Positions 3,061 through 35,560 of a stretch of DNA of 36,843 nucleotides are shown here, in pieces. Source of the stretch: Candidatus Omnitrophota bacterium (lineage in GTDB: Bacteria > Omnitrophota > Gorgyraeia > B26-G9); NCBI GenBank assembly GCA_023819605.1, contig JAMWCB010000002.1, positions 1 through 36,843 of the forward strand, written 5' to 3'. Below the pieces are notes generated by a model. It made no database searches. It had not been told where the DNA came from and saw nothing but the letters and a program-made list of their open reading frames with translations. The position numbers were made by a program, and so were the translations under genes. Within the stretch, counting starts at the first letter, position 1. Each line of letters starts with the position of its first letter.

Positions 3061-3072
3061 CTCCCGACCAAT

Positions 3073-3670: not shown

Positions 3671-3688
3671 GCAAATCCTCCTCTCTGA

Positions 3689-18052: not shown

Positions 18053-18066
18053 CGGTCAAAATCCGG

Positions 18067-18699: not shown

Positions 18700-18857
18700 T
18701 GCCCGCTCCTCTCCTCTCTGCCGCTGCCGTTCTCCCGCGTTTTGTACCGTTCGTCTCGGATGCCCGCTGCCGGCGGGAATACCCCGCTGGTTACCGCGTA
18801 TACATTAGAGCGCGGCCGGGTGGACGAACATTTCACCCGCCTGATAAACTGTTCGGG

Positions 18858-20270
18858 TTAACACTGCAGGGCCGGCATCCGTTCTTCCCGCATCCGCAGG
18901 CACGCCTGGCACAGCGGATATTCCTCAACGGAAAAATCGATCAACGCGCGCTGAAGACGCGCGAGCGCCCGGCTCTGCCACAACGTATCGATGCCGCCGG
19001 CGACCGTACCGATGCTCATGCGCCCGTCGATATCGCAACAACACGGCGCCACGGTTCCATCCCATAACACGTTCATTTTTTCGAAAGGTTCCCGGCAGAG
19101 CGGTTCGGTCGCGAATTCCCCTGCCTCGGGGTGTCCATAGGTGTAGGTTTTCAAGCTTCCCTGCTCATCGAAAAATTCCGGATTGTAGTGACATTTTAAA
19201 GGAATCAGCCTGATCTCATCGACAAATTCGCGCAAGGGCGCTAAAAACCGCTGTACTGCCTGCGCGTATTCCGGCCGGGCAGCGGGAATAATCGTGGAAA
19301 TGTAGAGCTTCACCTGCTCGCGCAAACCCATGCTTTCCCGTTCGGCATGCAGCGAACGCAGGCCGGCATGCATGCGCGACCACGCGCTTCCGGCGCGCAG
19401 CACCGCATAAGAATCGGCGTCAAACCCGTCGATGGACAAACCAATCGCCGCCGGGGCAGCCGTTAAAAGTTTCCGCCGCACTGCCGGCCGCTCCAACAGC
19501 AGGCCGTTGGTCTGAATCCCGCTGATACACCCTTCCTGTTTTGCCCGCAGAACCAATTGATGAAACTTCGGATGCAGTAACGGCTCCCCTAAAAAAAATA
19601 ATTTTATTTCGCCGGCGCGGCGCTGTGTGAACGAAATATCCGAGAACTCCAAGTGAGCGAGGCGTAACGATACTGACCGGCTGCGCCAATGGCCGAAAAT
19701 ATCATCAAGCATCGCCACGGAAATAAAGCCCCGCTTGCGGCTCATATGTGTACGCGGGCACATGCGGCACTGGAGGTTGCAACAATTGGTCGGTTCAATC
19801 TGCAAAACGTACGGCGAATCCGGCATAATCGCTATCCGGCTGCCGTCACGACTGATCATCAAACGCTGGCGCAGCCGTTCCGCCTGCCGCATGACCAGCC
19901 GGTCTCCGGTTTGCGCGCCAAGCTCCAGCGCAAGCGCGGTTGCCTGCTCGAAAATATACGGCCGGGACGGCACATCGACACCATAGAGCAATTCCGCTAA
20001 TTGACCGCATTGCAGCGCTGCCTGGGCATTAAATGCCGCCTCCGCCGGTTGCTCTCGCCCCTGCGCCGCCCGTGCCTGCTGCAGCAACAAGAAAAAATGC
20101 GCAAATGCCTTCCGGTATTCTTTCCGCCACAGCCATGCAATGGCCGCACAATACCGCAACCGGCAATCAGCGGTATCGTCTTGCAGGAACAGTTCCGCTG
20201 CCTGCGCCGCGTCGGTAAATCTCTGCTGCCGCACTAATCCGGCCAGCACGCTTTTTTGACTAACATCCAT
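18858..20270 (-). CDS. TPR-like N-terminal domain fused to a radical SAM/SPASM domain protein
   Basis: Start moved to ATG 20270, which has AAGGAG 6 nt upstream. The helical N-terminus spans about 150 aa. The radical SAM motif is CCNLQCRMC (CxxxCxxC). The C-terminal SPASM-type Cys cluster is CREPF...GTVAPCCCDIDG...EYPLCQAC. Confidence 0.85.
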   Translation of the reverse strand: MDVSQKSVLAGLVRQQRFTDAAQAAELFLQDDTADCRLRYCAAIAWLWRKEYRKAFAHFFLLLQQARAAQGREQPAEAAFNAQAALQCGQLAELLYGVDVPSRPYIFEQATALALELGAQTGDRLVMRQAERLRQRLMISRDGSRIAIMPDSPYVLQIEPTNCCNLQCRMCPRTHMSRKRGFISVAMLDDIFGHWRSRSVSLRLAHLEFSDISFTQRRAGEIKLFFLGEPLLHPKFHQLVLRAKQEGCISGIQTNGLLLERPAVRRKLLTAAPAAIGLSIDGFDADSYAVLRAGSAWSRMHAGLRSLHAERESMGLREQVKLYISTIIPAARPEYAQAVQRFLAPLREFVDEIRLIPLKCHYNPEFFDEQGSLKTYTYGHPEAGEFATEPLCREPFEKMNVLWDGTVAPCCCDIDGRMSIGTVAGGIDTLWQSRALARLQRALIDFSVEEYPLCQACLRMREERMPALQC

Positions 20271-20309
20271 ATTTTTCTCCTTGCCATTACGTTTTAATTC
20301 ACAAAAAAT

Positions 20310-20325
20310 AGCAATTATTATGCCA
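20310..20325 (-). promoter_or_regulatory. sigma54 (-24/-12) promoter
   Basis: The minus strand reads TGGCAT-AATAA-TTGCT, against the consensus TGGCAC-N5-TTGCW. The GG and GC dinucleotides are correctly spaced. The element sits about 40 nt upstream of ATG 20270. Confidence 0.55.
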
Positions 20326-20514
20326 AACATTATTCAAACTACCGGAGAGAATTATTTCCCCTTTCACGACGGCATATTACCGTGCATCCGCTGCTTAGAC
20401 ATGATCGATGTGCCGGCCTTGATCATTTCCCGGCGGCATACCGGTAGGAAATTTTTTCTCAGGTGAACGATCTCAGGATACCCCGCGTGGCAAAATATGT
20501 TTCGATAAAGGTGC

Positions 20515-21223: not shown

Positions 21224-21571
21224 TCAACCGCCGCCGGAAAAATCGTCTTCCAGCGCGGCGAATGCGTCGCGCAATTGCGCGAATAGCTGCGGGATGGCCG
21301 CCGGGTCGCTGCCATCTTTTGCCAAACGTTCAAGCGCAGCGGCCGGCTCGACCAACGCCTGCAGCCTTAAATTCGCGGCAGCGCCTTTAATGCTATGCAC
21401 GATCGTTCCGATCAGGGCAAGATTATTCGCGGCGAGAGCCGCCGCCGCCTGTGCCAATTGTTCACGCGTCTGCTGCCGAAACAACCCGATCAATTCCAGA
21501 TAAATATCCTCGCTGATACCCCCGAGCGCGGAGAGTATCGCTTGCCGCTGTAGTTTATCCCGATAATCCAT
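21224..21571 (-). CDS. Hpt domain phosphotransfer protein
   Basis: Start moved to ATG 21571, which has AAGGAG 6 nt upstream and overlaps the kinase stop as TGATG. The phospho-accepting motif is HSIKGAAANL. Confidence 0.8.
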   Translation of the reverse strand: MDYRDKLQRQAILSALGGISEDIYLELIGLFRQQTREQLAQAAAALAANNLALIGTIVHSIKGAAANLRLQALVEPAAALERLAKDGSDPAAIPQLFAQLRDAFAALEDDFSGGG

Positions 21572-24500
21572 CACGTCTCCTTCTGCGCGCCGCGCTGTCC
21601 CCATTGCCGGAATAACTTACGAATCTTCCCGGAATCAATCGGCTTGGTAATGTAATCGTCCATTCCTCCGGCAATCGCCGTTTCCCGGTCTTCCAAAGTA
21701 GCCGCTGCGGAAACCCCGACAATCGGCACCGGATTAGCCAATTCGGTGCGGATAATCCGCGTTGCCGCCAACCCGTCCATCTGCGGCATCTGCACATCCA
21801 TCAAAACAATATCATACCGGTTATAACGTATTTTTTCGATGGCCATGCCGCCGCTGTCGGCAATATCCGTAGCACAGCCGAAGCGCCGGATCAGCGCTTC
21901 CAGCAGTTTATAATTTATCGGGTTATCATCGACAATTAAAATGCGTAAATTCTTAAATTCTTCCGGATTATCGGCGGGATCACGGCTTGCCGGTTCACCG
22001 GCAAATAACGACTCCAACGTCTTAACCAGGTCGTTCTTAAAAATCGGTTTCGTCAAAAAAGCCGAGAATCCGTACTGCCGGGAAAGGAAGGCGGTACCGA
22101 TATTCGTGTCCTGGGTTGTCGCAATAATTTTCATTTTTTCCAACGCTAACTCGCTGCGCACGGCTCGGGCTAATTCATAACCGTCCATACCTTTCAGGAC
22201 AATATCGGACAACAGAATGTCCGGGGCGGAACTTTGCTGTTTCAGCCAGTCCAAAGCGCTCTCGGCATCGGGAAATGTCTCCGCGACAACCAATCCCTGC
22301 TCTTCGCAATATTGCTTCAACAAATCGCGCGCGGCCGGATGATCTTCAACAATAACCACGCGTTTGCCGACAAGACCGGCAGACACGGCTGCCGGCCCCT
22401 CCGGTTCGCCGGATTCCGCGTTATCCAAAAACAGCGTAAAAAAGAATTCACTGCCGACGCCCTCCTGGGACCGGAAGCCGATCGCGCCGCCCATCCGCTC
22501 GACCAACGATTTACAAATCGCCAATCCCAATCCTGACCCGCCGAAACGGCGCGCCGTCGAAGGATCCGCCTGCATAAACGGCTTAAATATGTACGGTTGC
22601 TTCGCTAACGGAATACCGATGCCGGTGTCGCGCACGAAAATTTCCATCCGCGTTTTTCCCTGTTCCGGCGCCGCCGCGGAAACACGCAGCCGAACTTCGC
22701 CCTGTTCGGTAAATTTCACGGCATTACTGAGTAAATTCAGGAGGACCTGCCGGAGGCGCGTCGGATCTCCGGTAAACCGGCGCGGCAGCGCATCGGCATA
22801 TTCACAAAAAAACTCGACGCTTTTACCCTGCAGGCGCGGCTTGATCATATTAAACGTCGATTCAATCAACTGATGCAAATCAAAATCAATATGTTCTAAA
22901 AGCAAATTTCCCGCTTCAATTTTCGAAAAATCAAGGATATCGTTGATGATGCCCAATAACAAATTACAGCCGTCAAGAATCGTTTGCATATATTTGCGCT
23001 GTACTTCATCGACCATCGTTCCGGCTAAAAGTTCCGCGTATCCGACGATGGAATTCATCGGCGTGCGAATCTCGTGCGACATACTGGCCAAAAACCGCGT
23101 TTTCATTTCACTTGCCTCTTCGGCAATACGGCGCGCCTCCTGCATCGCCGTTTCCGCCTGCTTGCGCGCTGAAATATCGCGCACAATGGCGATTGAATTC
23201 AGCAGCCGACCCTGCGCATCGCGCACGACGCTCAAGGAGATATCCACATCCAGCAAGCCGGTGCGCGTAAACATCTTTGTCTCCAAATGGTGCTGCATGC
23301 CTTTTTGCCGCACATTCTGCGCCCGGATTTTCTGCCATTCTTCCGCCGGATACAACGTTTGCACGGATCGCTGGCGCAAATCGACCTCGCTAAAACCGAG
23401 CATCGTTTCCGTATACGCATTCCAGGAAACCAATTGTTCATTCTCATCGGCAAGCATAATCGCCACCGCCGAATTTTCATAAATCGTTTTCAAGCGGTTT
23501 TGGGTCATCTGCAATTCTTCTTCCGCGCGCTTCTGCGCGGTGACGTCATCGTACATCATGACCAGGTCGCGCGAAGAAATTTTATACACATAGGTTTCCC
23601 GCCAACTCCAAATCCGGTGTTCCCGATAATATGTAAACGGATGCGTCTCGGGAATCCCGTTCATCCACACTCTGCGTAAAATCTCCACCAGCCCGACTTC
23701 ATGAAAGGATGGGAAAATTTCACCCAGCCGGCGCCCCAAAACTTCCGCGCGATTGCGCCGTTCGATCGTTTCCGCGGCGCGATTAAATTCCTTAATGACG
23801 AATTCCTGCCCATTGTCGGTCACGGTCAAGACCATAACCCCGCTGCGCATATGGTCGAACATTTCCCGAAAACGCTGCTCGCGCATACGCAAGTTTTCCG
23901 CATACCGATACCGCTGGTCTAAGACATAGAGGAATAAACCGCCGAGGCCGCTCAACAGCAGAATCATTACCGCGCCGAATCCCCAATACCAGTGCAGCGA
24001 AAACGGCGCGGCGACCATAACCAGTCCGCGCAGATCGCCGCCCAGCGGTTCGTGCCGGATCAGCGGCTGAAGAAACGCCGCGGGAGACACGTATTTGCAC
24101 AGGCGCGCGAGCGCGATTTTTTGCGCCGCATCCGGCGGCCAGGCAAGCGGCCACAACGATACGCCGGCCGCTCCCGCCGCGTTCGATTCCGCAATCGTGC
24201 CCTGCCGGTCGACGATAAAATAAAACATATCCGGCGACAGCCGCGCGTCGTGCAGTGAAAACGGCGTATACCCGCCGATCACCCCGCGGACATCACCCTG
24301 CGCGTCACGCAGCGGGCTTGCCGCAAGGCTTGCCGGCGTGCCGTTCTCGCTGAGCATAAACTCAGTGCCGTGTTCGCCGGCTAAAGCCCGCCGGACACCG
24401 CGCAGTTCTTTCAGCAACCGCTTCCCCGCAAAGGCGGCATGCTCCTCCGGAAAAAAACCGCGCACCTCCCCCTGCGCGTCAAGGACGAACCCGGCGCGTA

Positions 24501-24792
24501 TCCCCGTTGCCCGCGCATACTGCCGTAAAAAAGCGGCGGTTTCCGGCGGCAAGCCGGCTTCCGGAACCGCCCTCACCGCCGGCACCGCCGCTAAACCGCC
24601 GATCGCGGCGATAAGGCGTTGCTGTTGACTATATATCGCCGTCAGCACCTTTTCCCGCGCTGCGTCGACGCGCTCTTCAAATTCCACCCGGCCGTGCCGC
24701 ACCAGGCGCCCCAGAATCAGCCCCCCGAGCGCCACAACAATGGCGATACCGCCGGCGATCAGCTTAATTTTTTTATTTCTTTCCGGCATCAT
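21571..24792 (-). CDS. hybrid sensor histidine kinase (periplasmic sensor, PAS, HisKA, HATPase, two receiver domains)
   Basis: Start taken as ATG 24792, because the 24858 start lies inside a terminator hairpin. Two TM segments flank a sensor region of ~270 aa. H-box FLASMSHEIRTPMNSI. N and G boxes LLSNAVKFT, DTGIGI, GGSGLGLAI. Receiver domains VVIVEDHP...LLSDIVLKGMDG and ILIVDDNP...VLMDVQMPQMDG. Confidence 0.9.
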   Translation of the reverse strand: MMPERNKKIKLIAGGIAIVVALGGLILGRLVRHGRVEFEERVDAAREKVLTAIYSQQQRLIAAIGGLAAVPAVRAVPEAGLPPETAAFLRQYARATGIRAGFVLDAQGEVRGFFPEEHAAFAGKRLLKELRGVRRALAGEHGTEFMLSENGTPASLAASPLRDAQGDVRGVIGGYTPFSLHDARLSPDMFYFIVDRQGTIAESNAAGAAGVSLWPLAWPPDAAQKIALARLCKYVSPAAFLQPLIRHEPLGGDLRGLVMVAAPFSLHWYWGFGAVMILLLSGLGGLFLYVLDQRYRYAENLRMREQRFREMFDHMRSGVMVLTVTDNGQEFVIKEFNRAAETIERRNRAEVLGRRLGEIFPSFHEVGLVEILRRVWMNGIPETHPFTYYREHRIWSWRETYVYKISSRDLVMMYDDVTAQKRAEEELQMTQNRLKTIYENSAVAIMLADENEQLVSWNAYTETMLGFSEVDLRQRSVQTLYPAEEWQKIRAQNVRQKGMQHHLETKMFTRTGLLDVDISLSVVRDAQGRLLNSIAIVRDISARKQAETAMQEARRIAEEASEMKTRFLASMSHEIRTPMNSIVGYAELLAGTMVDEVQRKYMQTILDGCNLLLGIINDILDFSKIEAGNLLLEHIDFDLHQLIESTFNMIKPRLQGKSVEFFCEYADALPRRFTGDPTRLRQVLLNLLSNAVKFTEQGEVRLRVSAAAPEQGKTRMEIFVRDTGIGIPLAKQPYIFKPFMQADPSTARRFGGSGLGLAICKSLVERMGGAIGFRSQEGVGSEFFFTLFLDNAESGEPEGPAAVSAGLVGKRVVIVEDHPAARDLLKQYCEEQGLVVAETFPDAESALDWLKQQSSAPDILLSDIVLKGMDGYELARAVRSELALEKMKIIATTQDTNIGTAFLSRQYGFSAFLTKPIFKNDLVKTLESLFAGEPASRDPADNPEEFKNLRILIVDDNPINYKLLEALIRRFGCATDIADSGGMAIEKIRYNRYDIVLMDVQMPQMDGLAATRIIRTELANPVPIVGVSAAATLEDRETAIAGGMDDYITKPIDSGKIRKLFRQWGQRGAQKET

Positions 24793-24847
24793 CGTTTCAT
24801 TCCTTGTCCGTCCGGACGCGAAAAAAACTTTTTTCCGGAACACATCG

Positions 24848-24877
24848 AAAAAAAGCACCCGGGCGTCAAGCCCGGGC
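24848..24877 (-). terminator. intrinsic terminator between cheX and the hybrid kinase gene
   Basis: The minus strand has a stem CCCGGGC/GCCCGGG (7 bp plus a G-U pair), loop TTGAC, then GC and TTTTTTT. Confidence 0.6.
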
Positions 24878-24977
24878 TTCGCTTATATATACGGATAAAC
24901 GCACGTTCACCGCACGACACTCCAACGACAGACACCCTGTCCACACGCGCCCGGTTTCGGACGCTCCCGCGTAGCGG

Positions 24978-25454
24978 TCAAATTTTATTCGTTTTAAGGC
25001 ACACTTCAACCGTAAAATTCCCTTCTTCCGTGGCAAAGGGAATCACAATGTACGGAAAATCTTTCACGCGGCTCAATTCATGGTTATCGCCGATCACCAC
25101 CGTCGGCAGGGCGATTTTAAAACTAAACCCTCGCTGGGTCAATTCGCCTTTCGCGCCGCCGGCAATCATATTGACAATCTCGCCGACCGCGTCGCGCACA
25201 TCCGCGTCGATTTCCTGTTTTTCCTCGCCGAGCATATTCGCCGCAATCTTCACGGCCAATTGCCGCTGCAGGCAAAACGCCACCCAGCCGTTCGCATCCC
25301 CGGCCATGCCGATAATCGCTGAAATATCGCGGTTAAACTCGTTTTCGTCCGTCGTTTTTATATAGGGACTGCCGCGCGTAACCGTGAGCATCGCCATCGT
25401 CGTCAATGCGTTGACCGTGGCATTGATAAAGGAATTAATCATATCGACGTTCAT
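24978..25454 (-). CDS. cheX: CheY-P phosphatase CheX
   Basis: 158 aa. The N-terminus MNVDMINSFINATVNALTTMAML and the central IIGMAGDANGW...GEIVNMIAGGAKG are CheX/CheC-superfamily hallmarks. GAGGAG lies upstream. Confidence 0.8.
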   Translation of the reverse strand: MNVDMINSFINATVNALTTMAMLTVTRGSPYIKTTDENEFNRDISAIIGMAGDANGWVAFCLQRQLAVKIAANMLGEEKQEIDADVRDAVGEIVNMIAGGAKGELTQRGFSFKIALPTVVIGDNHELSRVKDFPYIVIPFATEEGNFTVEVCLKTNKI

Positions 25455-25490
25455 TACCGCTCCTCAGGTTGTCAACATTGTTATCCGCAT

Positions 25491-25865
25491 TTACGCGCTG
25501 ATAAAACGCGTAACTTTTGCTTTCAGGGCTTCCGGGGTAAACGGTTTTACGATATAGTCGTTGACCCCTTGTTTCAAAGCCTCGACCACTTCCGTTTTTG
25601 CCGCTTCGGTGGTGATCATAATGACCGGAATCATCTTAAACGTATCGCTGCCGCGCACGGATTTCACAAAAGTCAATCCGTCCATTTCCGGCATATTCCA
25701 ATCGGTAAGAATAAGATTGAATCCCCCGGCTTTTAATTTCGATAGCGCGTCGATGCCGTTTTCCGCTTCCACGGAATTTTCAAAGCCGATTTTCTGCAGC
25801 GTATTCTTAATTATCCGGCGCATGGTGGACGAATCGTCTACCACTAATATTTTTACGTTGCTCAT
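25491..25865 (-). CDS. cheY: chemotaxis response regulator CheY
   Basis: 124-aa single receiver domain: KILVVDDSSTMRRII, ILTDWNMPEMDG, ITTEA, YIVKPF. The ATG overlaps the fliY stop (ATGA). Confidence 0.9.
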   Translation of the reverse strand: MSNVKILVVDDSSTMRRIIKNTLQKIGFENSVEAENGIDALSKLKAGGFNLILTDWNMPEMDGLTFVKSVRGSDTFKMIPVIMITTEAAKTEVVEALKQGVNDYIVKPFTPEALKAKVTRFISA

Positions 25866-26779
25866 TTGCCGACCTCCGTGATTTTTGCACCAAAATGTTC
25901 TGCGATCGTTACAATTTCCGCGCGGGCGAGGATACGGCGGCCAAACGCCACCGCAACCGGCTCGCGGATCGTTGCGTCAAACTTTAAAACCAGGCCGCGC
26001 CGGCCGGCGGTCCATAACTGCCGCAACGTCATTTTCTGCCGCGCTAATTGCACGGCGACCGGAACTTTAATTTTCGCAACGGTATCGAAGTCTCCATACC
26101 GCCGACAGTATTCGGCGATCGTTTGCAGCCGGTCTTTTTTTTCCGGCTCTTCCGTTGGCTGCGCGGCAACCTCATCAAATCCCTCCATTTGATTCATGAT
26201 CGCCTGCTCAAAATCAGCTACCGCGGCGCGGGCGAACGGAATGGAGACAAAACTCAGCAGTGTGCTGTCCACCATATCCGCAACCTTAAAACGGAACAGG
26301 ACTTTCACAATCCCTTCCGGAAACAACCCCGCAAAATCCGTCGGTTCTCCCAGAGTTATCGATCCGGCGTCAAACTTAATCGTTTTCCGAATGCTCTTGG
26401 TAAGCACATCTTCGCCCATGCGGGTAATTTCCTGCATCATCACTAAAATGGCCTGCTTACCTTCTGCCGCATGCGTGGGCGGAACGAAAATTACTTTTTT
26501 TTCCACCATGCGCGTGGCAATCTGCTCGGCGGTACCCACGTCCATGGCAAAAAACCATTCGCCGCGATAGTCGCCGGAAAATGAAAAACGCAGGACGACA
26601 CTTTTTTCCTCCGTGGCGGCAACCGCCTCCGCCGCTTCGACGATCGTCACTTTCGGCGGCGCAAATTTTACCTGGCCATGCAAACGGCCGGTCAATTCAT
26701 TAGCCGGCGCGCCGAAGGCGATATTACAGATTTCCGCAAACGAATCGGTTTCTTCCTTGCGCATCAATGGCTCATCCAT
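25862..26779 (-). CDS. fliY: flagellar motor switch protein FliY (CheC-like domain plus FliN/SpoA domain)
   Basis: N-terminal CheC-like motif DSFAEICNIAFGAPANEL. C-terminal SpoA/FliN segment VPVAVQLARQKMTLRQLWTAGRRGLVLKFD...VAFGRRILARAEIVTIAEHFGAKITEV. Confidence 0.8.
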   Translation of the reverse strand: MDEPLMRKEETDSFAEICNIAFGAPANELTGRLHGQVKFAPPKVTIVEAAEAVAATEEKSVVLRFSFSGDYRGEWFFAMDVGTAEQIATRMVEKKVIFVPPTHAAEGKQAILVMMQEITRMGEDVLTKSIRKTIKFDAGSITLGEPTDFAGLFPEGIVKVLFRFKVADMVDSTLLSFVSIPFARAAVADFEQAIMNQMEGFDEVAAQPTEEPEKKDRLQTIAEYCRRYGDFDTVAKIKVPVAVQLARQKMTLRQLWTAGRRGLVLKFDATIREPVAVAFGRRILARAEIVTIAEHFGAKITEVGK

Positions 26780-26957
26780 GGCCGCTCCGCATCAGGTACG
26801 GGTCATTGCGCACCCACTCTTTGAGCTGCTCGCGCTCGAACCGCCACTTATGCATAATTTTCCGAGCAGGGATCTTACCTTCTTTCAGCAAACGGTAAAT
26901 CGACCGCTCGCTCAATTTTAAAAAATCCGCAGCTTCCTTCAACGTCAAAATATCCAT
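26772..26957 (-). CDS. excisionase-family (MerR-like) helix-turn-helix DNA-binding protein
   Basis: Start moved to ATG 26957. MDILTLKEAADFLKLSERSIYRLLKEGKIPARKIMHKWRFEREQLKEWV matches the excisionase-type HTH pattern. The stop lies 8 nt inside fliY. The longer 27095 start adds an implausible R/G/C-rich extension. Confidence 0.65.
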   Translation of the reverse strand: MDILTLKEAADFLKLSERSIYRLLKEGKIPARKIMHKWRFEREQLKEWVRNDPYLMRSGHG

Positions 26958-27195
26958 GATGCTGCCACCGCTTATCTTCTCCAAACAATCCCCCCTGGAT
27001 AGGCATTCCCTGCCGGCACTCCGCTGCCCGGCGCGGTCCCGGCAGCCGCCACGGTGCCAAAGGCACAAAACCCGCGCTGGTTTACCCGGTGGCATTTCAC
27101 CGGCCCGGCGAACTATACGGGCTACTGCCGCTTTCCTCTTTACACCTATATTATCGGAGTTTTACGAAAAAACTTGAGGATTTTCTATAAGATCG

Positions 27196-28233
27196 TTATG
27201 TTTTACGCCGCGAAGGCACCGCCGGCGCTACGGGCGCTGCCGCCGGCAGCGCAGCCGGAATTTTGGGGATATCCATTTTTTTATTAACAACCGCAATAGT
27301 TTTGTTATTCCGCAAGCCGATCGTGGCGGAAAAGATCGGTTTTTTCGCAACCGTCAAAACGACCGCCGGTTCGGCCGGTTTGTCTAAACGAATAATATCG
27401 CCTTCTTTCAATTCGGCAATTTCCCGGACTTTCAGAACGGTCGTATCTAAAACCGATTGGACCGTCAACGGCAGCCGGAGCAGCTCGCTGCGGAACTGCT
27501 TTTCCAGTTCGGCGCTCACATTTTGTTGTATACTGCGCACATCGGAACCGATCGACGGCAGGAGTTGTTCGAACGTCGCCATGGGAAAACACACATTAAT
27601 AATACCGGAGGCTTTGCCCAGTTTAACTTCAAAACAAAGCAACAGCACTAATTCGTCCGTATCCAGTCCCTGCGCGAATCGCGGATCGGTTTCCGTGCGT
27701 TCAACCTGGGGCGAAAAAGAAAAAACCTGTTTCCAGGCCAGGCGGTAGGCTTCCAACAGCCGATGGATTATTTTTGAAGAAAGCGATATTTCCAGGGGGG
27801 TCAACGGCCGGATCGACGCAGACTCTTCCGCGCTGCCGCCGAGCAGCCGCTCGACAAAAAGCAACAAAATATTCAGGTTTATTTCAATAATAAAATTTCC
27901 TTTTACCGGCGGAATACTGATGACGTTCAAACAGGTATATTCAGGCAGGGAGAGCATAAATTCATTGTAGGTCAACTGGTCTGCCGAAACTAACTCGACA
28001 TTGACCAATGCCCGCACAAATCCGGAAAGCATAAACCCAAACTGCTGGGCAAAATTTTCATGAATTGCCCGCACCACGCGCAAAACCTCTTTCGGAATGC
28101 GGCTGGGCTTGGTAAAATCATATACCCTGATTTTCCGCTGTTTGGTGTCGCTTTTTTGCAGCGCGACCTGCCCGCCGTCCACGGCGTGCAATAAAGCATT
28201 GACCTCATCCTGATTGAGAGTATTTTCCGCCAT
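27196..28233 (-). CDS. fliM: flagellar motor switch protein FliM
   Basis: 345 aa. N-terminal CheY-P-binding peptide LNQDEVNALL. C-terminal SpoA domain LKVREIAELKEGDIIRLDKPAEPAVVLTVAKKPIFSATIG. GGAGGAG lies upstream. Confidence 0.85.
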   Translation of the reverse strand: MAENTLNQDEVNALLHAVDGGQVALQKSDTKQRKIRVYDFTKPSRIPKEVLRVVRAIHENFAQQFGFMLSGFVRALVNVELVSADQLTYNEFMLSLPEYTCLNVISIPPVKGNFIIEINLNILLLFVERLLGGSAEESASIRPLTPLEISLSSKIIHRLLEAYRLAWKQVFSFSPQVERTETDPRFAQGLDTDELVLLLCFEVKLGKASGIINVCFPMATFEQLLPSIGSDVRSIQQNVSAELEKQFRSELLRLPLTVQSVLDTTVLKVREIAELKEGDIIRLDKPAEPAVVLTVAKKPIFSATIGLRNNKTIAVVNKKMDIPKIPAALPAAAPVAPAVPSRRKT

Positions 28234-28263
28234 CCGCCTGGATATCTCCTCCCGCCCCGGCGA

Positions 28264-28797
28264 TTACACCTCCGGCGGTGCACTGTCGTCGACTTTATGT
28301 ATCTTCTGCACGAGCGCGCGAAGTATTTCCCGCGTTCGCCGGGCCTTTTCCAGCGTTTCTTCCAATAATTCCTTCTGCAGGCTCGCATCCGCTAATTTTT
28401 CATTATATTTTGTCAACAGCGTATAGTAGCGCAACCCCCGGTCAACGGCATTTTTCACTTCGAGAATGCTGCGAAACGGTTTAAGCAGATAATCATACAC
28501 CCCTTCGGCGACCGCCCGCGTCGCAATATTATCACTGCCGTATCCGGTCATCAAAATCGTAATAATATTCGGGTGGCGGGACTTGGCGTGATAGAGCACA
28601 TCCAAACCCGTTTTACCTTCTTCCAGCTTATAATCGGAAAGCACCAGGGCGTACGGATCGGCATCAAGTTTACGCTCGGCAATCTCGGCGCTTTGCGCGC
28701 AATCGACCAGGCACTCCGGCGGACGGGAAAGAATCCTATTCAGTAAATCACAAATATCTTTTTCATCATCAACAACAAGTATTTTCAAAGGCGCCAT
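28264..28797 (-). CDS. response regulator (receiver domain plus C-terminal coiled-coil, no known output domain)
   Basis: KILVVDDEKDICDLL, VLSDYKLEEGKTG, YLLKPF. The C-terminal ~55 aa are helical and charged. Confidence 0.85.
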   Translation of the reverse strand: MAPLKILVVDDEKDICDLLNRILSRPPECLVDCAQSAEIAERKLDADPYALVLSDYKLEEGKTGLDVLYHAKSRHPNIITILMTGYGSDNIATRAVAEGVYDYLLKPFRSILEVKNAVDRGLRYYTLLTKYNEKLADASLQKELLEETLEKARRTREILRALVQKIHKVDDSAPPEV

Positions 28798-28814
28798 ACA
28801 TTATCCATCCTGCA

Positions 28815-29231
28815 TTAATTCACCAAACACTCCGCTCCCACATGCCGGGAAATTTTTTCCCGCGCCGCCGCTGGAATATTCTCAAAGGCCATACCGATCC
28901 GGCACCGATTACTGCCGCGCGCGCCGGACAGCTCACGCCGCCAGACCACCACTCCCTGTGCATACACCGACTCGATCACCGCCGCTTTATCATCTTCCGG
29001 AACATACACTTCCATCCACACGCGCGCGCCGGCCGGAATATCAAACGGCACATCAACGGCAACACCGCCGCCGCTGATATTCGTGGTCAGCAACTCCACC
29101 GCGGTTCCTGCCGCGCCATATCCGAAACAAACCATTACTAACTGTTCTTCACTCCGGGGGTTTTTACGCTGCTCGGCAACAGTTGCCCCCCTGCCAAAAT
29201 TATTTCGATCCGCCTTCCTTTGCATGTCCAT
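28815..29231 (-). CDS. PilZ domain protein (c-di-GMP receptor type)
   Basis: RxxxR motif (RKNPR) and D/NxSxxG motif (NISGGG) at the expected spacing. 138 aa. Confidence 0.75.
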   Translation of the reverse strand: MDMQRKADRNNFGRGATVAEQRKNPRSEEQLVMVCFGYGAAGTAVELLTTNISGGGVAVDVPFDIPAGARVWMEVYVPEDDKAAVIESVYAQGVVVWRRELSGARGSNRCRIGMAFENIPAAAREKISRHVGAECLVN

Positions 29232-29264
29232 CTCTCCTTAAAAAAATTTCCCGCACCGGAACGC

Positions 29265-29852
29265 TCAACGCATAGAACGCATAATCGTCCACAGCATCGC
29301 CGCTTCTTTACCCCCTAAATTTTTAATACCGGTAAATATCGGACGAACCAGATAAATACTATCACCCGGTTCAAGAATAATTTCTTTATTATTTACCGCA
29401 ACCTGCACACGCCCCTGGGTCGGCAATCCCAACATTTCGCCGCCTTCCGGGCAATGTTCCGAAGGAATAACTTCGTGCGGGTGCAGCCGCAACAACAACG
29501 GCAATATCTGCAGATCCAATACGCTCGCCGCTAAAATTTCGTAGCGGCCGTGAATCTGCGTTGGCGCATGCCGTCGAATAAAAACAAATTCCGAAGATTC
29601 GTCTTTTTTAAAAAAAGCCGCTACCGATGTTCCCAATGCTTCGGCTATCCGACGGAGCGAATCAACCGAGGGAGATGTCACGCCTTTTTCCAATTGCGAC
29701 AAAAAACTTGAAGTCAATCCGGTGCGCGCCGCCAGCTCCTTCAATGCTAAACGCTTTTCCTGCCGTAGCTGTTTAACTTTGTACCCTATTGAATCCACTG
29801 CTGCCGCCCTTCTCTGCGCGACTATCATAATAATACCACCTATCCGCCCCAC
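29265..29852 (-). CDS. XRE-family HTH transcriptional regulator with C-terminal cupin domain
   Basis: HTH IGYKVKQLRQEKRLALKELAARTGLTSSFLSQLEKGVTSPSVDSLRRIAEAL, and a cupin-like C-terminus (GDSIYLVRP...). The start is uncertain: GTG 29852 gives the longest ORF, and ATG 29828 or GTG 29798 are alternatives. Confidence 0.8.
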   Translation of the reverse strand: MGRIGGIIMIVAQRRAAAVDSIGYKVKQLRQEKRLALKELAARTGLTSSFLSQLEKGVTSPSVDSLRRIAEALGTSVAAFFKKDESSEFVFIRRHAPTQIHGRYEILAASVLDLQILPLLLRLHPHEVIPSEHCPEGGEMLGLPTQGRVQVAVNNKEIILEPGDSIYLVRPIFTGIKNLGGKEAAMLWTIMRSMR

Positions 29853-29894
29853 AAGTCAAATATATTGTAGTATACGTTTCCGACATCCACAGCA

Positions 29895-30989
29895 TTATGC
29901 GTTCTTTTCCTGTCCGGATATTTCTGCCTGGCCCAAAAAAATTTTTCTGAAAATATCGATATTTTCCTGAATGAAATCCCGCTGCGTTGCCGCTATTGCC
30001 TTGCTTTCCACTGCATAACGCGCAATAGTATTCAGTGCGCAGTGGATATCGCGCAGCGAATCTGTCCCTTTTATCGAAATATTTTGCGCCCGCAGCTGAC
30101 AATATTGCATCGCTACGGCCGCCTGCCCGGCAAGCACGGCCAGTACATTTTTATCCCGTGTACTAAAAACATCCGCCGCGGATTTTTCCGCGACATTCAA
30201 AACGCCCATCATCGTCTCGCGGCCATCTCCGGAATTAATCCCAATCAGCGGCACACTCAAAAATGACCCGCTGCGGTAATGCCGCTGCTCACCGTGTACC
30301 AACCGCAACTCATCGGCGATTTCTCTGACTAAAAGCGGCTCGCCGCTCTTCAAAACTCTGCCGGCGATCCCCTCACCCAAACGTATCCTGGTACTCTGGA
30401 TAACCGCACCTTCCAACCCCTGCGCGGCGGCGATCCGCAACTCTTGCGATTGTTCATCAAAAAGCATCAACGATCCTCGCAATGCCCCGGTAACCTGCAA
30501 CCCAACCTCCAAAGCACGACGGGCTATATCAGTGACGCTCTGCGCGACGCCGGCTACCCGCGTAATTTCCCAAAATGCATGCAACTCCTGTGTGCGCCCC
30601 AAGCCTGCCTGCAGTTGTTGCTTCTGCAGGCATTGCTGGATCGTCAAATATACGACGTTTAAATCAAACGGTTTGCAAATAAAATCAAACGCGCCGATTT
30701 TTATCGCCTCAACCGCAGCGGCAATGGTCGGATAACCGCTCAGCACGATAACTTCCACTTCCGGATTAGACCGCTTGATTTCCCGTAATACATCCATACC
30801 ATTTACTTTAGGCATCTGCAGATCCGTCAGGAGAATCTGGAAGCAAGTATTCCGCGCTTTTTCCAAAGCCTGCTCCCCATCTTCAGCGGTTTCCACGGCA
30901 TAGCCGCGGTCGCCGAGCGCGCGTTTGAGCAGATCGCGGATTACTTGTTCATCATCGACGATAAGAATGCGGGGCGTTTCTTTCAGCAT
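29895..30989 (-). CDS. response regulator with GAF domain
   Basis: Receiver domain (RILIVDDEQVIRDLL, LLTDLQMPKVNG, FICKPF), followed by a GAF-like domain (RGSLMLFDEQSQELRIAAAQG...GIAGRVL...SFLSVPL). Confidence 0.8.
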   Translation of the reverse strand: MLKETPRILIVDDEQVIRDLLKRALGDRGYAVETAEDGEQALEKARNTCFQILLTDLQMPKVNGMDVLREIKRSNPEVEVIVLSGYPTIAAAVEAIKIGAFDFICKPFDLNVVYLTIQQCLQKQQLQAGLGRTQELHAFWEITRVAGVAQSVTDIARRALEVGLQVTGALRGSLMLFDEQSQELRIAAAQGLEGAVIQSTRIRLGEGIAGRVLKSGEPLLVREIADELRLVHGEQRHYRSGSFLSVPLIGINSGDGRETMMGVLNVAEKSAADVFSTRDKNVLAVLAGQAAVAMQYCQLRAQNISIKGTDSLRDIHCALNTIARYAVESKAIAATQRDFIQENIDIFRKIFLGQAEISGQEKNA

Positions 30990-31156
30990 GGACGCAGAAT
31001 CCCAAACCTGTTCTTCCGATGTGTTCCGATCGAGACAAGTCTCCGATACTACCCCGGATATTATTTCGCCAGTGCAAAACAGCGAAACCTCGCCAGGGCT
31101 CCCGGCAAATATCCCGATACATGCCGGAGTTTTGAGCGCGGGCGTGAATAAACCGG

Positions 31157-31804
31157 TTAATGCGACAAATCCGTACCGGCAGACTGAGCGCTGGACAGAA
31201 AACCGGTGAGAAGCTTTTCCGATACGGCAAGTTCCTGGAGCAACTCCGGAATCGAGCCTGCGACGGTGTCCTGATGCCGCAGCTGCTCCAACATCTGCCG
31301 CGCCGACTCCAATGCTGCCGTTGCTTGACGGGCGACAAAAACTCCAGTTTTGGCTAAAGGAATCAATTTCTCCGCCTGCGCGAGCTGCCGGACAAACTCC
31401 AACGGCTGCCCTTCCAGACGGCGCAACCAGGAAAGCCTCCGAATACAGCTGACGATCTCATCAATATTAAAAGGTTTCAAAATAATATCAAAACAGCCCA
31501 AGGCGACCGCTTCATTGGCTGCATCCGCATCCATACTGCCGGCCAAGACCACCGACACGATGTGGTATTGTGCGGCCTGGATACGCCGAAGCAATTCCAA
31601 ACCGTCCATGCGCGGCATCATCATATCAACAAGAAGAATATCAAATGATTCCCGCTGCACCATGTCCCACGCCTGCGCGCCGTCTTCCGCGAAAAAAACA
31701 GTACAGCCGGCCTGTCCTAAAACCCGCGCAAGCAAATCGCGCACTACCTGCTCATCATCGGCAACCAGAATACGGCAGCTTTCGCTGCGGTTGCTGGTAT
31801 TCAT
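31157..31804 (-). CDS. response regulator with uncharacterised helical C-terminal domain
   Basis: Start moved to ATG 31804, which has GGGAGGG 4 nt upstream. Receiver domain (RILVADDEQVVRDLL, LLVDMMMPRMDG, IILKPF) plus a helical tail of ~90 aa. Confidence 0.8.
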   Translation of the reverse strand: MNTSNRSESCRILVADDEQVVRDLLARVLGQAGCTVFFAEDGAQAWDMVQRESFDILLVDMMMPRMDGLELLRRIQAAQYHIVSVVLAGSMDADAANEAVALGCFDIILKPFNIDEIVSCIRRLSWLRRLEGQPLEFVRQLAQAEKLIPLAKTGVFVARQATAALESARQMLEQLRHQDTVAGSIPELLQELAVSEKLLTGFLSSAQSAGTDLSH

Positions 31805-31855
31805 AAACCCTCCCTGGCGTATCGGTATCGTTGCGGACATTCTTCCCATTTTTTA

Positions 31856-31883
31856 TTATAACAAAAAAAATTTTTATTGCTAC
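31856..31883 (-). promoter_or_regulatory. candidate sigma70 promoter at the head of the signalling/switch cluster
   Basis: The minus strand reads TAGCAA-16 nt-TATAAT in a very AT-rich tract, about 50 nt upstream of ATG 31804. Confidence 0.35.
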
Positions 31884-31939
31884 TTTTAAATGCGCGGACT
31901 TAACGCCGGAGTTTTAAAACGTACGCGGATAAATCGGTT

Positions 31940-31983
31940 AAAAAAACAAATCGCGGAAATCTCCTGCAAGACTCCCGCGATTT
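31940..31983 (-). terminator. intrinsic terminator downstream of the CxxC-x17-CxxC gene
   Basis: The minus strand has a 9-bp stem AAATCGCGG/CCGCGATTT, followed by G and TTTTTTT. Confidence 0.6.
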
Positions 31984-32047
31984 GCTTAAAATTCCACCGC
32001 TCGTCTGCCGACGAGTAATGAACGATGCGCTACGACAGAAAATTTCG

Positions 32048-32218
32048 TTACCGCCGCCCGCCGCCATCATTGCGTTTTGAGAAACAATCCTTACAAAATA
32101 CCGGACGATCTCCGCTGGGCTTAAAAGGAACTTCGCATTCCTTTTTGCATTCCGAACAAGTCGTCTTGTGCATTTCCCGCGGCCGACCTCCGAATCTACC
32201 ACCCTGTTGAAAACCCAT
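32048..32218 (-). CDS. CxxC-x17-CxxC domain zinc-ribbon protein
   Basis: CSEC-17 residues-CKDC counted directly, with Gly/Arg-rich termini. The start is taken as ATG 32218, which has AAGGAGG 5 nt upstream. The longest ORF starts at 32254. Confidence 0.8.
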   Translation of the reverse strand: MGFQQGGRFGGRPREMHKTTCSECKKECEVPFKPSGDRPVFCKDCFSKRNDGGGRR

Positions 32219-32354
32219 ACTACCTCCTTCTTCGTTGCGGTATTTTTTATCCACTCAGACCCAGGCCCTCGCCCAGGCGAGTTCCATACCGTGTTAAACA
32301 ATCTTCTCCGTTGCCGCGCGCGGCACACCCGCGGATGGCCTATGCGCGCAAATT

Positions 32355-32699
32355 TTATCCGCGGCGCTTACGTCGTTGATAAAAAGGCTTTTGCCGCTGC
32401 CGGAACGCCCCGGCTCCCTCGCTCTTCTGCGGTGGTTCATACGAACGTTCTGCGGGAAAATGCGATTCCCTGCCGGCGCGCCGGCCCGCCCCCTCCGGGC
32501 GGAACGCCGCATCAAAAGGGCGTCGTGATTTGGAAAAATTTCGGCTTTCCACCGGCCGCTCGCCGGATTGCCCAAGCAGCAAATCAATCTTTCGTTCTAA
32601 AAAAACCAACTGCTGCTGCATTCTTTTCATCATCGCCGCTAACTCACTCTCGGTTTGTTGCGGCGAAGACGAATGTTCCCGTTGAAAATATTTTCTCAT
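32355..32699 (-). CDS. hypothetical small basic protein with N-terminal coiled-coil
   Basis: 114-aa ORF with an ATG start preceded by AAAGGAG. It has a coiled segment ESELAAMMKRMQQQLVFLERKIDLLLGQ and an Arg/Gly/Pro-rich tail ending in QRRKRRG. Confidence 0.6.
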   Translation of the reverse strand: MRKYFQREHSSSPQQTESELAAMMKRMQQQLVFLERKIDLLLGQSGERPVESRNFSKSRRPFDAAFRPEGAGRRAGRESHFPAERSYEPPQKSEGAGAFRQRQKPFYQRRKRRG

Positions 32700-32971
32700 C
32701 GCGCTCCTTTTAAACGTATGCCGGAAGGAAAACCTCTCCGTTCATTACACCGCATCCCTGGCCTTTTACCTCAACTGCTGCGCCGGGGGGCTGCCACGTT
32801 CAACAGCCAATCGATTCCCTTGTTAATTCCCGTATACCTGCAACGCGCTACCAATCCCAGCGCGCACTGTGGGTGAGAAAATATACCCCCGAACCTTTTT
32901 ACCTTAATCCATTACAACAACCGCCTAACCTTCGGGCGTATTTTTCACCAGCGGGGTAAGATATGCTCAAT

Positions 32972-33000
32972 AGTATACTGCCAAAAAAAAAGAAAGTCAA
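32972..33000 (-). promoter_or_regulatory. near-consensus sigma70 promoter
   Basis: The minus strand reads TTGACT-17 nt-TATACT, about 265 nt upstream of ATG 32699. Confidence 0.5.
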
Positions 33001-33026
33001 AACTTATAATTTGAACTTATAATTTG
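33001..33026. repeat. tandem direct repeat, 2 x 13 bp (AACTTATAATTTG)
   Basis: Two exact copies, at 33001-33013 and 33014-33026, followed by a partial third (AATTAC). On the minus strand the repeat abuts the -35 element directly. Confidence 0.9.
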
Positions 33027-33047
33027 AATTACTCATCCGGCGCGCCG

Positions 33048-33575
33048 TCACTGTTTCACCGGAAAATTCGGTTCTTTTTCTGTGGCGGTTACCCGTTCGG
33101 ATAGTAATGCCTGCCGCGCCTCGGAGAGCGCCGGCGGCTGATTGGCCCGAAAAAAACCATGGCAGGCATACCCGCGGCGCGCTGAGCCGACCATGATCAA
33201 ACGGTAGAAGAACTGCTCATCGCCGTTTTCACCGGTCAGGTAAATCATTACTCCGGACCGGTCAGGCATGGGTTCAAAAGCAGTAGCGCGCAGGATTCGC
33301 GGATACGCCTGCGGGTGCAACTGATGCACTACCTCCACATAACGCGCAACGGGAATTGCCTGCCGCGCTGCCGGAGCCAATGCGCGGTATCCGTACTGCG
33401 CGTCGTATTCCACAAACGCCGTTTGGGCAAAACGCAGAGCGGCCTGTGCCGCTGCCGCTTCATCCTGCCGGGGATTTTTTTCCGCGCAGCCAAAACATAC
33501 GACCAGGACACTTACCAATAAGAAGGTCTGCGCGTTATAAAAAATCCGCCCGGCTCGTCGGGAAATAATCGGCAT
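33048..33575 (-). CDS. putative lipoprotein, function unknown
   Basis: Start moved to ATG 33575, which has GGGAGGG 7 nt upstream. Signal peptide with a lipobox-like LVVCFGC. Confidence 0.6.
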   Translation of the reverse strand: MPIISRRAGRIFYNAQTFLLVSVLVVCFGCAEKNPRQDEAAAAQAALRFAQTAFVEYDAQYGYRALAPAARQAIPVARYVEVVHQLHPQAYPRILRATAFEPMPDRSGVMIYLTGENGDEQFFYRLIMVGSARRGYACHGFFRANQPPALSEARQALLSERVTATEKEPNFPVKQ

Positions 33576-33744
33576 GAATATCCCTCCCCCGCAAAAACAC
33601 CGAATACAATCGGCCATCTTTTTCTATTTTCCCGCATGCGAATTTTTTTGCAATGATTACTTTTGGAAAAAACCGTCGATTGAGAGCAACGGCATCGCGT
33701 TATCCCTTATCCTATTACTGTACCGGGCGAATCCAATCAACGGG

Positions 33745-34947
33745 CTATATCGACTGATCGGCGGCATCGCGGGCACACAAAGCTTTTTTTTCCTGAACGA
33801 CAGGCGTCGCAACAAATTCTACGTCCACCGGATAGAGCGCCACGTCCCCGGCGTGGAAGTTTGCGGCAACCACCGACATCCCATTCCGCGCGCTAACCCG
33901 GCGACCAAAAGTCAACGTATCCAAAGCAACTTCTACATTATTTCCGCTTTCCTCAATCAGCTTCACACGACCGGCTGCCGCGGTAATCCGGGGACTCGTA
34001 ACCCGCACCAGTCCCAAAGATCCGCCGCCGTAACCATTATTTTTATATCGCGCGATGACATAATATCCTTCCGCCGCGGGATAAGATTTATCCGTAACAT
34101 AAACCAATTTTCCCACCAACTCCGGCGCGCTATTCGCCAGCGTGATCGGTTTATCCTGCCGCCGCAAGCAGTACTGCCCCTGCCACAACCGAAGCGCGGA
34201 AAATAATTGCGCAAAGCTTTCCAGCAAGCGCCGCGCGTCCGCAGCGCCGGGCTTGAGCGACCGTTCCACTGCCTGCAGGCTTTGTACTAAATCTGTCCTG
34301 CCGCGTACCCGCGTTGCTTCAACCGTCGCATATGATACCGGAAACCCGATTTGTACTGCCGCATAACGTTGCGTAAACATCTCCCGCGATTCATTGCAGA
34401 TGTACGATCGTTCCGGATCAATAATCGTACGCCAGTCAGCATGCGCGGCAAAGTGCGCGTCCAAAAACGCCGACAGAGAAAGCACCCTCACCGTCGCTTC
34501 ATCCACGGCAACCACTACGTAGACTGCAGACGACGCTCTCGCCCTCGACAGAACAATGCTCCCCAACAAACGTTCTCCCGCAGCCTTAGCGTCTACGGAG
34601 TCAAGCTGCATAAATACCGGCAGATGCCCTTGCGCTGCAGCTCGCGCAAGTATCTCCCCGCTGCTGCGCAACAACCACAGTTCTTCCGTATCCGTGTCGG
34701 GCGTAAGGCGCAAAACCGCCTCACGCACATTCATTGCTGCCAGTGAAACGCGCGCCGCTTCGGCGATAAAACTGCGCTGCATTCCGTCTTCGGAAAGCTG
34801 CAGCGACGGCGTCAACGCATCCGTTAAGGTAAACGTATCGGCGCTGATCACCGCGGCCGGCGCACTCGTCAAAAAAACCAATAAATTGCCCAATACACAA
34901 ACACCGCACTTCCGTCCGACCTGCATCTTCTGCCTCTTCTGCGTCAT
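33745..34947 (-). CDS. hypothetical exported protein
   Basis: 400-aa ORF whose ATG overlaps the upstream stop (ATGA). N-terminal signal-like segment VCVLGNLLVFLTSAPAAVISA. No recognisable domain. Confidence 0.65.
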   Translation of the reverse strand: MTQKRQKMQVGRKCGVCVLGNLLVFLTSAPAAVISADTFTLTDALTPSLQLSEDGMQRSFIAEAARVSLAAMNVREAVLRLTPDTDTEELWLLRSSGEILARAAAQGHLPVFMQLDSVDAKAAGERLLGSIVLSRARASSAVYVVVAVDEATVRVLSLSAFLDAHFAAHADWRTIIDPERSYICNESREMFTQRYAAVQIGFPVSYATVEATRVRGRTDLVQSLQAVERSLKPGAADARRLLESFAQLFSALRLWQGQYCLRRQDKPITLANSAPELVGKLVYVTDKSYPAAEGYYVIARYKNNGYGGGSLGLVRVTSPRITAAAGRVKLIEESGNNVEVALDTLTFGRRVSARNGMSVVAANFHAGDVALYPVDVEFVATPVVQEKKALCARDAADQSI

Positions 34948-35468: not shown

Positions 35469-35560
35469 GCTTTCGACCGTACTCCTTTCTTCATTCCTTG
35501 CCAAATCTGTCCGGCAAACAAATACTTTCTACCACGACGCATCATTCTCCCAGCGCAGAG

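Follow-up and report, generated by a model that had tools for sequence, protein, structure and literature searches.

Flagellar switch genes, a fliM-linked receiver and a hybrid kinase-Hpt pair on a contig of an Omnitrophota-like lineage

The window analysed here is a whole contig of 36,843 bp, in which twelve genes on the minus strand, between positions 21224 and 31804, bring together components of the flagellar switch and of two-component signalling. An earlier reading of the same DNA, made from its letters alone (the sequence-only reading), had described them as a single tightly packed cluster with six receiver (REC) domains, one Hpt domain, one histidine kinase (HK) and a terminator after cheX, and without genes for CheA, CheW, the chemoreceptor MCP, CheR, CheB or CheD. 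Pfam and NCBIfam scans of the minus-strand open reading frames (ORFs) found all twelve genes with the listed domains, and the counts of REC, Hpt and HK agreed. All the receivers keep the acidic pocket, the phospho-accepting Asp and the Lys. In the direction of transcription the genes code for a receiver with a helical tail (REC-tail), REC-GAF, XRE-cupin, PilZ, a receiver with a coiled-coil-like tail (REC-cc), FliM, a small HTH_17 protein, FliY, CheY, CheX, a hybrid HK and a stand-alone Hpt protein. Most junctions are as tight as had been stated (8 nt of overlap between HTH_17 and fliY, 4 nt between fliY and cheY), but three are wide: 167 nt between REC-tail and REC-GAF, 238 nt between FliM and HTH_17, with a promoter candidate inside, and 185 nt between CheX and the HK, with the terminator inside. 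The cluster is a mosaic of about four transcription units and not one conserved package: REC-tail alone; REC-GAF, XRE-cupin, PilZ, REC-cc and FliM; HTH_17-fliY-cheY-cheX; and the translationally coupled HK and Hpt genes, which converge on marC.

For comparison, related loci were collected through matches to FliM (45-49% identity) and CheY (73-85%), and the flanks were usable in seven independent lineages, all of them uncultured: L116/L117, L119/L120, L121/L122 (L121-123), L033, L030, L032 and L113. Only L033 bears the label Candidatus Omnitrophota. An exact look-up of FliM and protein searches returned the window as the only contig carrying these proteins; no close genome was found when the contigs of species representatives were scanned with FliM (top match 37% identity), and a scan of metagenomes yielded just two further close loci among 80.

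The order fliM-(HTH_17)-fliY-cheY-cheX was present in all seven lineages and in the same orientation, with identities to the window proteins of 73-85% for CheY, 54-64% for CheX, 40-49% for FliM and 26-43% for FliY. FliM (27196-28233, minus strand, as are all genes of the cluster) was recognised by Pfam FliM (E 2.2e-45) and FliMN_C and by NCBIfam TIGR01397 (255.7 bits, cut-off 219.6). It has the FliM middle domain, a FliN-like C-terminal domain and an N-terminal peptide of the LSQxEIDALL type that binds phosphorylated CheY (CheY-P); this peptide reads LNQDEVNALL, in which Q, E and V do not vary across the alignment of relatives. The next gene codes for a DNA-binding protein of 61 aa of the HTH_17/excisionase family (26772-26957; Pfam HTH_17 E 1e-15; NCBIfam 'excise' 45.2 bits, cut-off 28.8). 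It also lies between fliM and fliY in L119 (70% identity), L120 and L121-123, and a literature search for an HTH_17 gene in this position found nothing relevant. FliY (25862-26779) combines a CheC/CheX-like N-terminus (Pfam CheX E 5.3e-7, 30 bits against a cut-off of 27) with a C-terminal FliN (SpoA) domain (FliMN_C E 8.8e-12) that matches the FliN chains 1yab, 1o6a and 8umd of the PDB. It fell short of the NCBIfam equivalog threshold for FliY (PRK08119, 80.3 bits versus 218), with FliY models still being its best matches; judging from these scores, it is a divergent member of the family. FliY and CheC of B. subtilis and T. maritima carry two active-site motifs, whereas the window protein keeps one of the two, and the residues of this phosphatase motif, D12, E16, N19 and P42 (D-x3-E-x2-N-x22-P), are invariant in eight sequences of relatives. 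CheX (24978-25454) belongs to its Pfam family (E 2.2e-28, 98.6 bits), matches the CheX structure 3hm4 (E 6.7e-36) and contains the E-x2-N motif within DAVGEIVN. CheY-P is known to bind FliM and FliY, CheX and the CheC domain of FliY dephosphorylate it, and CheY is normally phosphorylated by CheA. Since CheX matches solved CheX structures and the FliY motif is invariant, the machinery for the removal of CheY-P is ordinary.

The gene for CheY occupies positions 25491-25865. Its best match in the PDB was H. pylori CheY1 (E 4.2e-44), followed by the CheY proteins of Vibrio, Salmonella and E. coli (E range 4e-44 to 1e-38), and its top NCBIfam match was the CheY equivalog, with 141 bits under a strict cut-off of 189. 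When aligned with 18 relatives and the E. coli protein, it has the equivalents of D12, D13, D57, T87 and K109 as well as Y106, and the motifs DDxSTMRR, DWNMPxMDG and YxVKPF typical of CheY are present. The protein is 77-85% identical to orthologues encoded beside cheA, which are 72-91% identical among themselves, and in the alpha1 (DDSSTMRRIIKNTL), active-site (LILTDWNMPEMDG) and alpha4-beta5-alpha5 (TTEAAKTEVVEALKQGVNDYIVKPFTPEALK) segments it hardly differs from them. By these comparisons the window CheY is canonical, is not evolving at an accelerated rate and has diverged no further than its CheA-linked orthologues. Had CheY changed its phosphodonor, its partner-facing surfaces should bear a mark of this; none was seen, and this CheY is not special.

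Within the spacer between fliM and the HTH_17 gene, a candidate promoter of the sigma-28 (FliA) type, TCAAGTTT-N11-TCCGATAA, was located at 27151-27177 on the minus strand, ahead of HTH_17-fliY-cheY-cheX. It is two mismatches away from the consensus, which is the enterobacterial one, and it was the single match in the window where 0.03 were expected at up to two mismatches. Both boxes are invariant and at the same place in the five aligned spacers of relatives (L116/117, L119, L120, L121-123), and these fliM-fliY spacers are otherwise unconserved. This footprint points to a sigma-28-type promoter that would split fliM from fliY-cheY-cheX. About 24 nt downstream of the -10 box, the spacers of the relatives contain a further conserved element, CTGGCA (L116 7400-7440; L119 1955-1975; L120 1850-1870; L121 8765-8785), and in the window the aligned letters are GCGGCA (approximately 27115-27105); the element could belong to the 5' untranslated region, serve the HTH_17 protein as an operator or be a degenerate -24 box of sigma-54. 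A sigma-54 promoter was rejected, as its pattern is unenriched in the window (7 matches versus 17 expected) and the site between fliM and HTH_17 deviates from it by two mismatches. At the other end of this unit, an intrinsic terminator follows cheX (24827-24877, minus strand). It consists of a GC-rich hairpin, GCCCGGGC-loop-GCCCGGGU, and seven U residues (24877-24857), followed by a second, U/A-rich hairpin with its own U-run. No terminator-like site in the scan ranked higher. The minimum free energy of the region is -31.9 kcal/mol, with a z-score of -4.05, a stability reached by 0 of 200 shuffled sequences, so that the terminator listed by the sequence-only reading is real.

What lies after cheX differs between the window and its relatives. 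In four of the seven lineages, whose CheY comes closest to that of the window (82-85% identity), che genes follow directly. L033 continues with cheA; L116/L117 with cheA, a gene for an Hpt-HATPase protein, cheD-REC, cheR, cheD and cheB, and then flgF; L119/L120 with mcp, cheW, a REC gene, cheA, Hpt-HATPase, cheD-REC, cheR and cheD; and L121/L122 with mcp, with cheR-cheD-cheB upstream. The other three, L030, L032 and L113, run into flgFGAHIJNK, with cheA elsewhere; L030 also has cheD. In the window, the operon ends at the terminator and the hybrid HK and Hpt genes follow, an arrangement found after cheX in none of the seven. Core order and orientation, the upstream REC-cc gene and the sigma-28-like promoter after fliM are shared with the operons of relatives, and the HTH_17 gene with a subset of them. 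Upstream, the relatives have a gene for a protein of 189-213 aa and REC-PAS kinases, whereas the window has PilZ, XRE-cupin and REC-GAF.

Some features of the related loci deserve a separate mention. Their che operons encode, directly after CheA, an unusual protein of 526-533 aa with Hpt and HATPase domains, in which no dimerisation or CheW domain was called; they also encode a CheD-REC fusion of 316-318 aa (regions L116 12052-14610, L119 9633-12176 and L120 9540-12109). The unannotated gene of 189-213 aa, to which the window has no counterpart, stands between REC-cc and fliM (L116 5782-6351; L119 293-895; L121 5566-6207), where fliL often is in other bacteria. Neither Pfam nor NCBIfam gave anything for it, and its identification as a diverged PilZ gene was rejected, given the lack of a Pfam match and of tblastn similarity. 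The cheX of L033 (7264-7740) contains an in-frame TGA inside an otherwise intact frame, which could be a sequencing error, the sign of a pseudogene or a case of recoding.

The gene immediately upstream of fliM (28264-28797) codes for REC-cc, a single-domain receiver of 177 aa (Pfam Response_reg E 1.7e-16) with a helical, coiled-coil-like tail. Residues D10, D11, D55, T84 and K106 are all present, and the receiver is of the NtrC/NosR type in NCBIfam and not CheY-like. It is 58-66% identical to receivers of 180-181 aa encoded at the same position in L116, L119, L120 and L121/L122 (L116 5250-5792; L121 5052-5597; L119 1-309). The tail of approximately 60 aa (28264-28485) includes an almost invariant Arg-rich stretch, TLEKARRTREILR, with the segment LQKELLxxTLEKARRTREILR. 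A search with the tail alone matched one representative among 1.84e9 cluster representatives, which makes REC-cc a small, lineage-specific family. It is apparently a conserved receiver family that has not been described before, whose tail could be a peptide for the binding of a ligand or of a partner. In the relatives, REC-PAS histidine kinases overlap or abut the REC-cc gene on its upstream side. In L116 the gene array leading to REC-cc and fliM opens with an ORF, truncated by the contig end, which finishes in tandem REC domains and overlaps a stand-alone Hpt gene; their products are 30% and 32% identical to the window HK and Hpt, respectively, and L116 also carries a full che operon. Given the REC-PAS kinases beside REC-cc and the tandem-REC/Hpt pair of L116, a non-CheA two-component input tied to fliM looks like a recurring trait of the lineage, and one that coexists with CheA-CheY.

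The hybrid HK gene (21571-24792) codes for a protein with the order transmembrane segment, periplasmic loop, transmembrane segment, PAS, PAS, HisKA, HATPase, REC and REC (Pfam); its start at 24792 agrees with the gene call P0011 of the collection (100% coverage). The loop, of approximately 240 aa, is weakly dCache-like (25.6 bits, cut-off 45). The motifs SHEIRTPMN, LLSDIVL and VLMDVQMP are intact in the kinase, and VHSIKG in the Hpt protein. All the elements of a multistep relay are therefore at hand, with the H-box His, the HATPase, the receiver Asp and the HxxKG of Hpt in place and the Pfam domains above their cut-offs. No close orthologue of the HK was found, the best matches being 28-40% identical over about half the length and spread over many phyla, and no orthologue stood in a flagellar context; many of the homologues bear a fused C-terminal Hpt domain. 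By sequence, the HK belongs to the generic class of unorthodox or hybrid kinases (PAS-HK-REC(-Hpt)), with Hpt split off as a coupled gene. The G+C content over the sensor part of the HK is 0.57 versus 0.52. The Hpt protein has 115 aa (21224-21571, within an ORF of 21224-21604; Pfam Hpt E 6.7e-14); translation probably begins at the ATG at 21571, which overlaps the stop codon of the HK gene (TGATG) and has AAGGAG 5 nt upstream. Its best NCBIfam match was the Hpt region of TorS, and tblastn detected no similarity to the P1 domain of the relatives' CheA proteins. We also rejected an origin of the protein as a vestigial CheA P1, since the CheA proteins of relatives gave no tblastn match in the window. 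Between the terminator and the start codon of the HK gene no promoter was identified.

We think it probable that the cluster is a mosaic of four units in which an ordinary late flagellar operon and a fliM-linked REC-cc are accompanied by a separate HK-Hpt relay running parallel to CheA-CheY. The sigma-28-type promoter, HTH_17, fliY, cheY, cheX and the terminator would then constitute a late flagellar operon, conserved in the lineage, for the machinery of switching and adaptation, in which CheY-P would bind the N-terminal peptide of FliM and would be dephosphorylated by CheX and by the single CheC-like site of FliY. The phosphodonor of the window CheY would be a CheA whose gene lies in another part of the genome, which we infer because the same operon in close relatives runs into mcp, cheW, cheA, cheR, cheD or cheB. 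REC-cc is probably co-transcribed with fliM, and the contig-specific PilZ, XRE-cupin and REC-GAF proteins would bring in cyclic di-GMP (c-di-GMP) and small-ligand inputs. The HK and Hpt would form a separate multistep phosphorelay of the ArcB/TorS/BarA kind that presumably ends on one of the three orphan receivers that lack an output domain; REC-cc is the best candidate for the acceptor because of its conserved linkage to fliM. Such a relay would modulate motor behaviour or the expression of flagellar genes in parallel to CheA-CheY and would not replace it; both the transfer of phosphate from Hpt to REC-cc and an action of REC-cc on the motor are predicted from the gene arrangement. Several points weigh against this mosaic. 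No cheA was seen on the single contig of this organism, so that the CheA encoded elsewhere is a deduction; contact of REC-cc with the motor is a prediction from its position; and HK-Hpt occupies exactly the position of the che genes of the four closest lineages, which can be read as a replacement. Some read-through from cheX into HK-Hpt is possible, as no promoter of their own was identified, and orthology between the pairs of L116 and the window is unproven, 30-32% identity being the level of generic paralogues.

The sequence-only reading had gone further and proposed one packaged module of twelve genes in which HK-Hpt feeds CheY or the orphan receivers without CheA. As for the package, the twelve-gene order is not conserved, since only fliM-(HTH_17)-fliY-cheY-cheX and REC-cc recur in relatives. 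That the organism should lack CheA, with HK-Hpt in place of the che operon and Hpt~P phosphorylating a canonical CheY as a chemoreceptor-independent input to FliM and FliY, is in our view very unlikely. The pair does sit where mcp or cheA sit in L033, L116, L119 and L121; the CheY-P phosphatases are kept; and, as P1 of CheA is itself an Hpt fold, the chemistry would be plausible. Moreover, the che proteins of relatives, used as tblastn queries against all frames of the whole window, found no CheA, CheW, MCP, CheR, CheB or CheD, as had been stated, so that the 36.8 kb hold no che kinase, receptor or adaptor gene. A missing cheA says little, though, when the window is a single contig of that size and a small part of the genome, and three related lineages likewise hold cheA away from the switch operon. 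The CheY shows no extra divergence and its partner-facing motifs are identical, between cheX and the HK lies a strong terminator, the Hpt protein has no detectable similarity to P1, and L116 holds both an HK-Hpt pair and CheA. We give equally little credit to the broader version in which HK-Hpt has displaced the che operon and donates to CheY or REC-cc, so that a periplasmic/PAS kinase drives the switch without chemoreceptor arrays. If true, a replacement of CheA would mean that nature had put a flagellar switch under the control of a conventional phosphorelay, a case of interest for how chemotaxis evolves and is rewired. The findings speak instead for an ordinary CheY/FliM/FliY/CheX operon whose che partners simply lie outside this contig; a CheA-less input to the motor is not supported, because close relatives carry normal CheA genes right beside the same operon. 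What survives of the proposed relay is the branch to the orphan receivers, with REC-cc beside fliM and the Hpt pair of L116 in its favour, while the branch to CheY is not supported, given the adjoining che genes of relatives, the canonical CheY and the terminator before the HK.

A more serious possibility, though one we do not favour, is that HK-Hpt is merely a neighbour with no link to motility, its acceptor being elsewhere, the orphan receivers being served by other kinases and the adjacency being due to rearrangement. The absence of the pair from this position in all seven lineages agrees with this, as do the lack of an HK orthologue in a flagellar context, the separate unit behind the terminator and convergent on marC, the higher G+C content over the sensor part, and the fact that REC-cc of relatives is preceded by REC-PAS kinases and not by hybrid HKs. 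However, the window has three receivers without output and only one kinase, and the tightly spaced HK(REC-REC)-Hpt pair of L116 stands first in the array leading to REC-cc and fliM. That the junction between cheX and the HK is instead an assembly chimera of two genomic regions or of two organisms we regard as the least credible of these explanations. The G+C content of the window shifts from 0.45 to 0.61 and synteny with relatives stops exactly after cheX, but the break coincides with a well-formed terminator with intact genes on either side, neither a repeat nor a truncated gene lies at the junction, and genes for flagellin glycosylation (Maf) further downstream fit a flagellar neighbourhood.

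With respect to known systems, the window shares with the CheA-CheY-FliM/FliY type of Thermotoga, Bacillus, Borrelia and Helicobacter a canonical CheY, the FliM peptide, a FliY with active site and FliN domain, and CheX, whereas CheA, CheW and MCP are absent from the contig. In common with the relays ArcB, BarA, TorS-TorR, RcsC-RcsD and LuxQ-LuxU, it has an intact H-box, HATPase, receiver Asp and HxxKG of Hpt; the differences are that Hpt is a separate, translationally coupled gene and that the kinase has two tandem receivers. For REC-cc the closest likeness is with Cle of Caulobacter (PMC5677366), a group of CheY-like receivers that carry an Arg-rich extension at the C-terminus and that associate first with c-di-GMP and then with FliM. 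REC-cc, too, is a single receiver with an Arg-rich C-terminal extension, encoded with motor and chemotaxis genes beside the gene of a c-di-GMP receptor. Unlike Cle, its tail is longer (approximately 60 aa, predicted to be helical), its receiver is NtrC/NosR-like and the phospho-acceptor residues are all kept; the likeness is one of architecture. By analogy, REC-cc might bind the switch as Cle does, or it might control the expression or assembly of flagellar components. In an uncultured and little-studied Omnitrophota-like lineage, REC-cc, the HTH_17 gene between fliM and fliY and the footprinted sigma-28-type promoter are of interest in themselves; together they suggest that an accessory two-component pathway acts, beside chemotaxis, on the motor or on the expression of late flagellar genes.

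The remaining genes of the cluster lie upstream of REC-cc. PilZ (28815-29231; Pfam PilZ E 3.4e-10, 40.6 bits versus 22.5) is a single-domain protein with RKNPR (RxxxR) at residues 22-26 and NISGGG (D/NxSxxG) at 51-56, and is likely to be a c-di-GMP receptor. Like the PilZ brakes and clutches YcgR, MotI/DgrA and FlgZ it is associated with flagellar genes, here in a flagellar switch operon, and is a small protein with both c-di-GMP motifs; it differs from YcgR in lacking the N-terminal domain and is not conserved in relatives. The XRE-cupin regulator (29265-29852) combines an XRE-family HTH domain (Pfam HTH_3 E 1.4e-13) with a cupin domain that scored slightly under the cut-off (Cupin_2 24.3 bits, cut-off 27.2), and a promoter-like site lies at its gene (29859-29830). 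Neither PilZ nor XRE-cupin had a homologue in any of the related loci fetched. REC-GAF (29895-30989; Response_reg E 2.8e-31; GAF_2 E 3.8e-18) is a response regulator with no recognised output domain, and REC-tail (31157-31804; Pfam Response_reg E 1.6e-28) an orphan response regulator with a helical tail of approximately 90 aa in which Ala replaces the conserved T/S switch residue; for both, the related loci gave matches at the level of the receiver domain only. An AlphaFold2 model of REC-tail from the single sequence has a REC fold and three C-terminal helices, with low confidence (pLDDT) in the tail.

Elsewhere on the contig, a scan of the window with Rfam gave no match to an RNA family. Positions 433-6492 probably represent a mobile element that integrated at a tRNA gene, with a ParB-N/N6-N4 DNA methylase (433-1737, minus strand), HTH proteins, a sigma70_r2-like ORF and a large serine recombinase (4756-6492, plus strand) whose 3' end overlaps tRNA-Ser(GGA) (6379-6466, minus strand). 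The G+C content is 0.45-0.46 at 2-6 kb and 0.52-0.61 elsewhere. Downstream of the cluster, at 13439-20330 on the minus strand, an island resembling those for flagellin glycosylation contains Maf/MptE-like paralogues (13439-15361 and 16214-18052), a S-adenosylmethionine-dependent methyltransferase (15339-16259), a 210-aa protein without assignment and a radical-SAM/SPASM enzyme (18858-20330). A sigma-54-like site, TGGCATAATAATTGCT, occurs at 20325-20310 (minus strand), this pattern being unenriched in the window. The approximately 1.2 kb upstream of REC-tail (31850-33047) have no convincing gene, with Arg-rich ORFs of 114-142 aa only, for which neither a family nor an Rfam match was obtained. 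Beyond it, three ORFs of 189, 400 and 426 aa on the minus strand of 33048-36841 gave no Pfam or NCBIfam match. A class-I glutamine amidotransferase-like ORF is located at 34944-35504, and the ORF of 400 aa begins, as judged by eye, with a hydrophobic stretch resembling a signal peptide.

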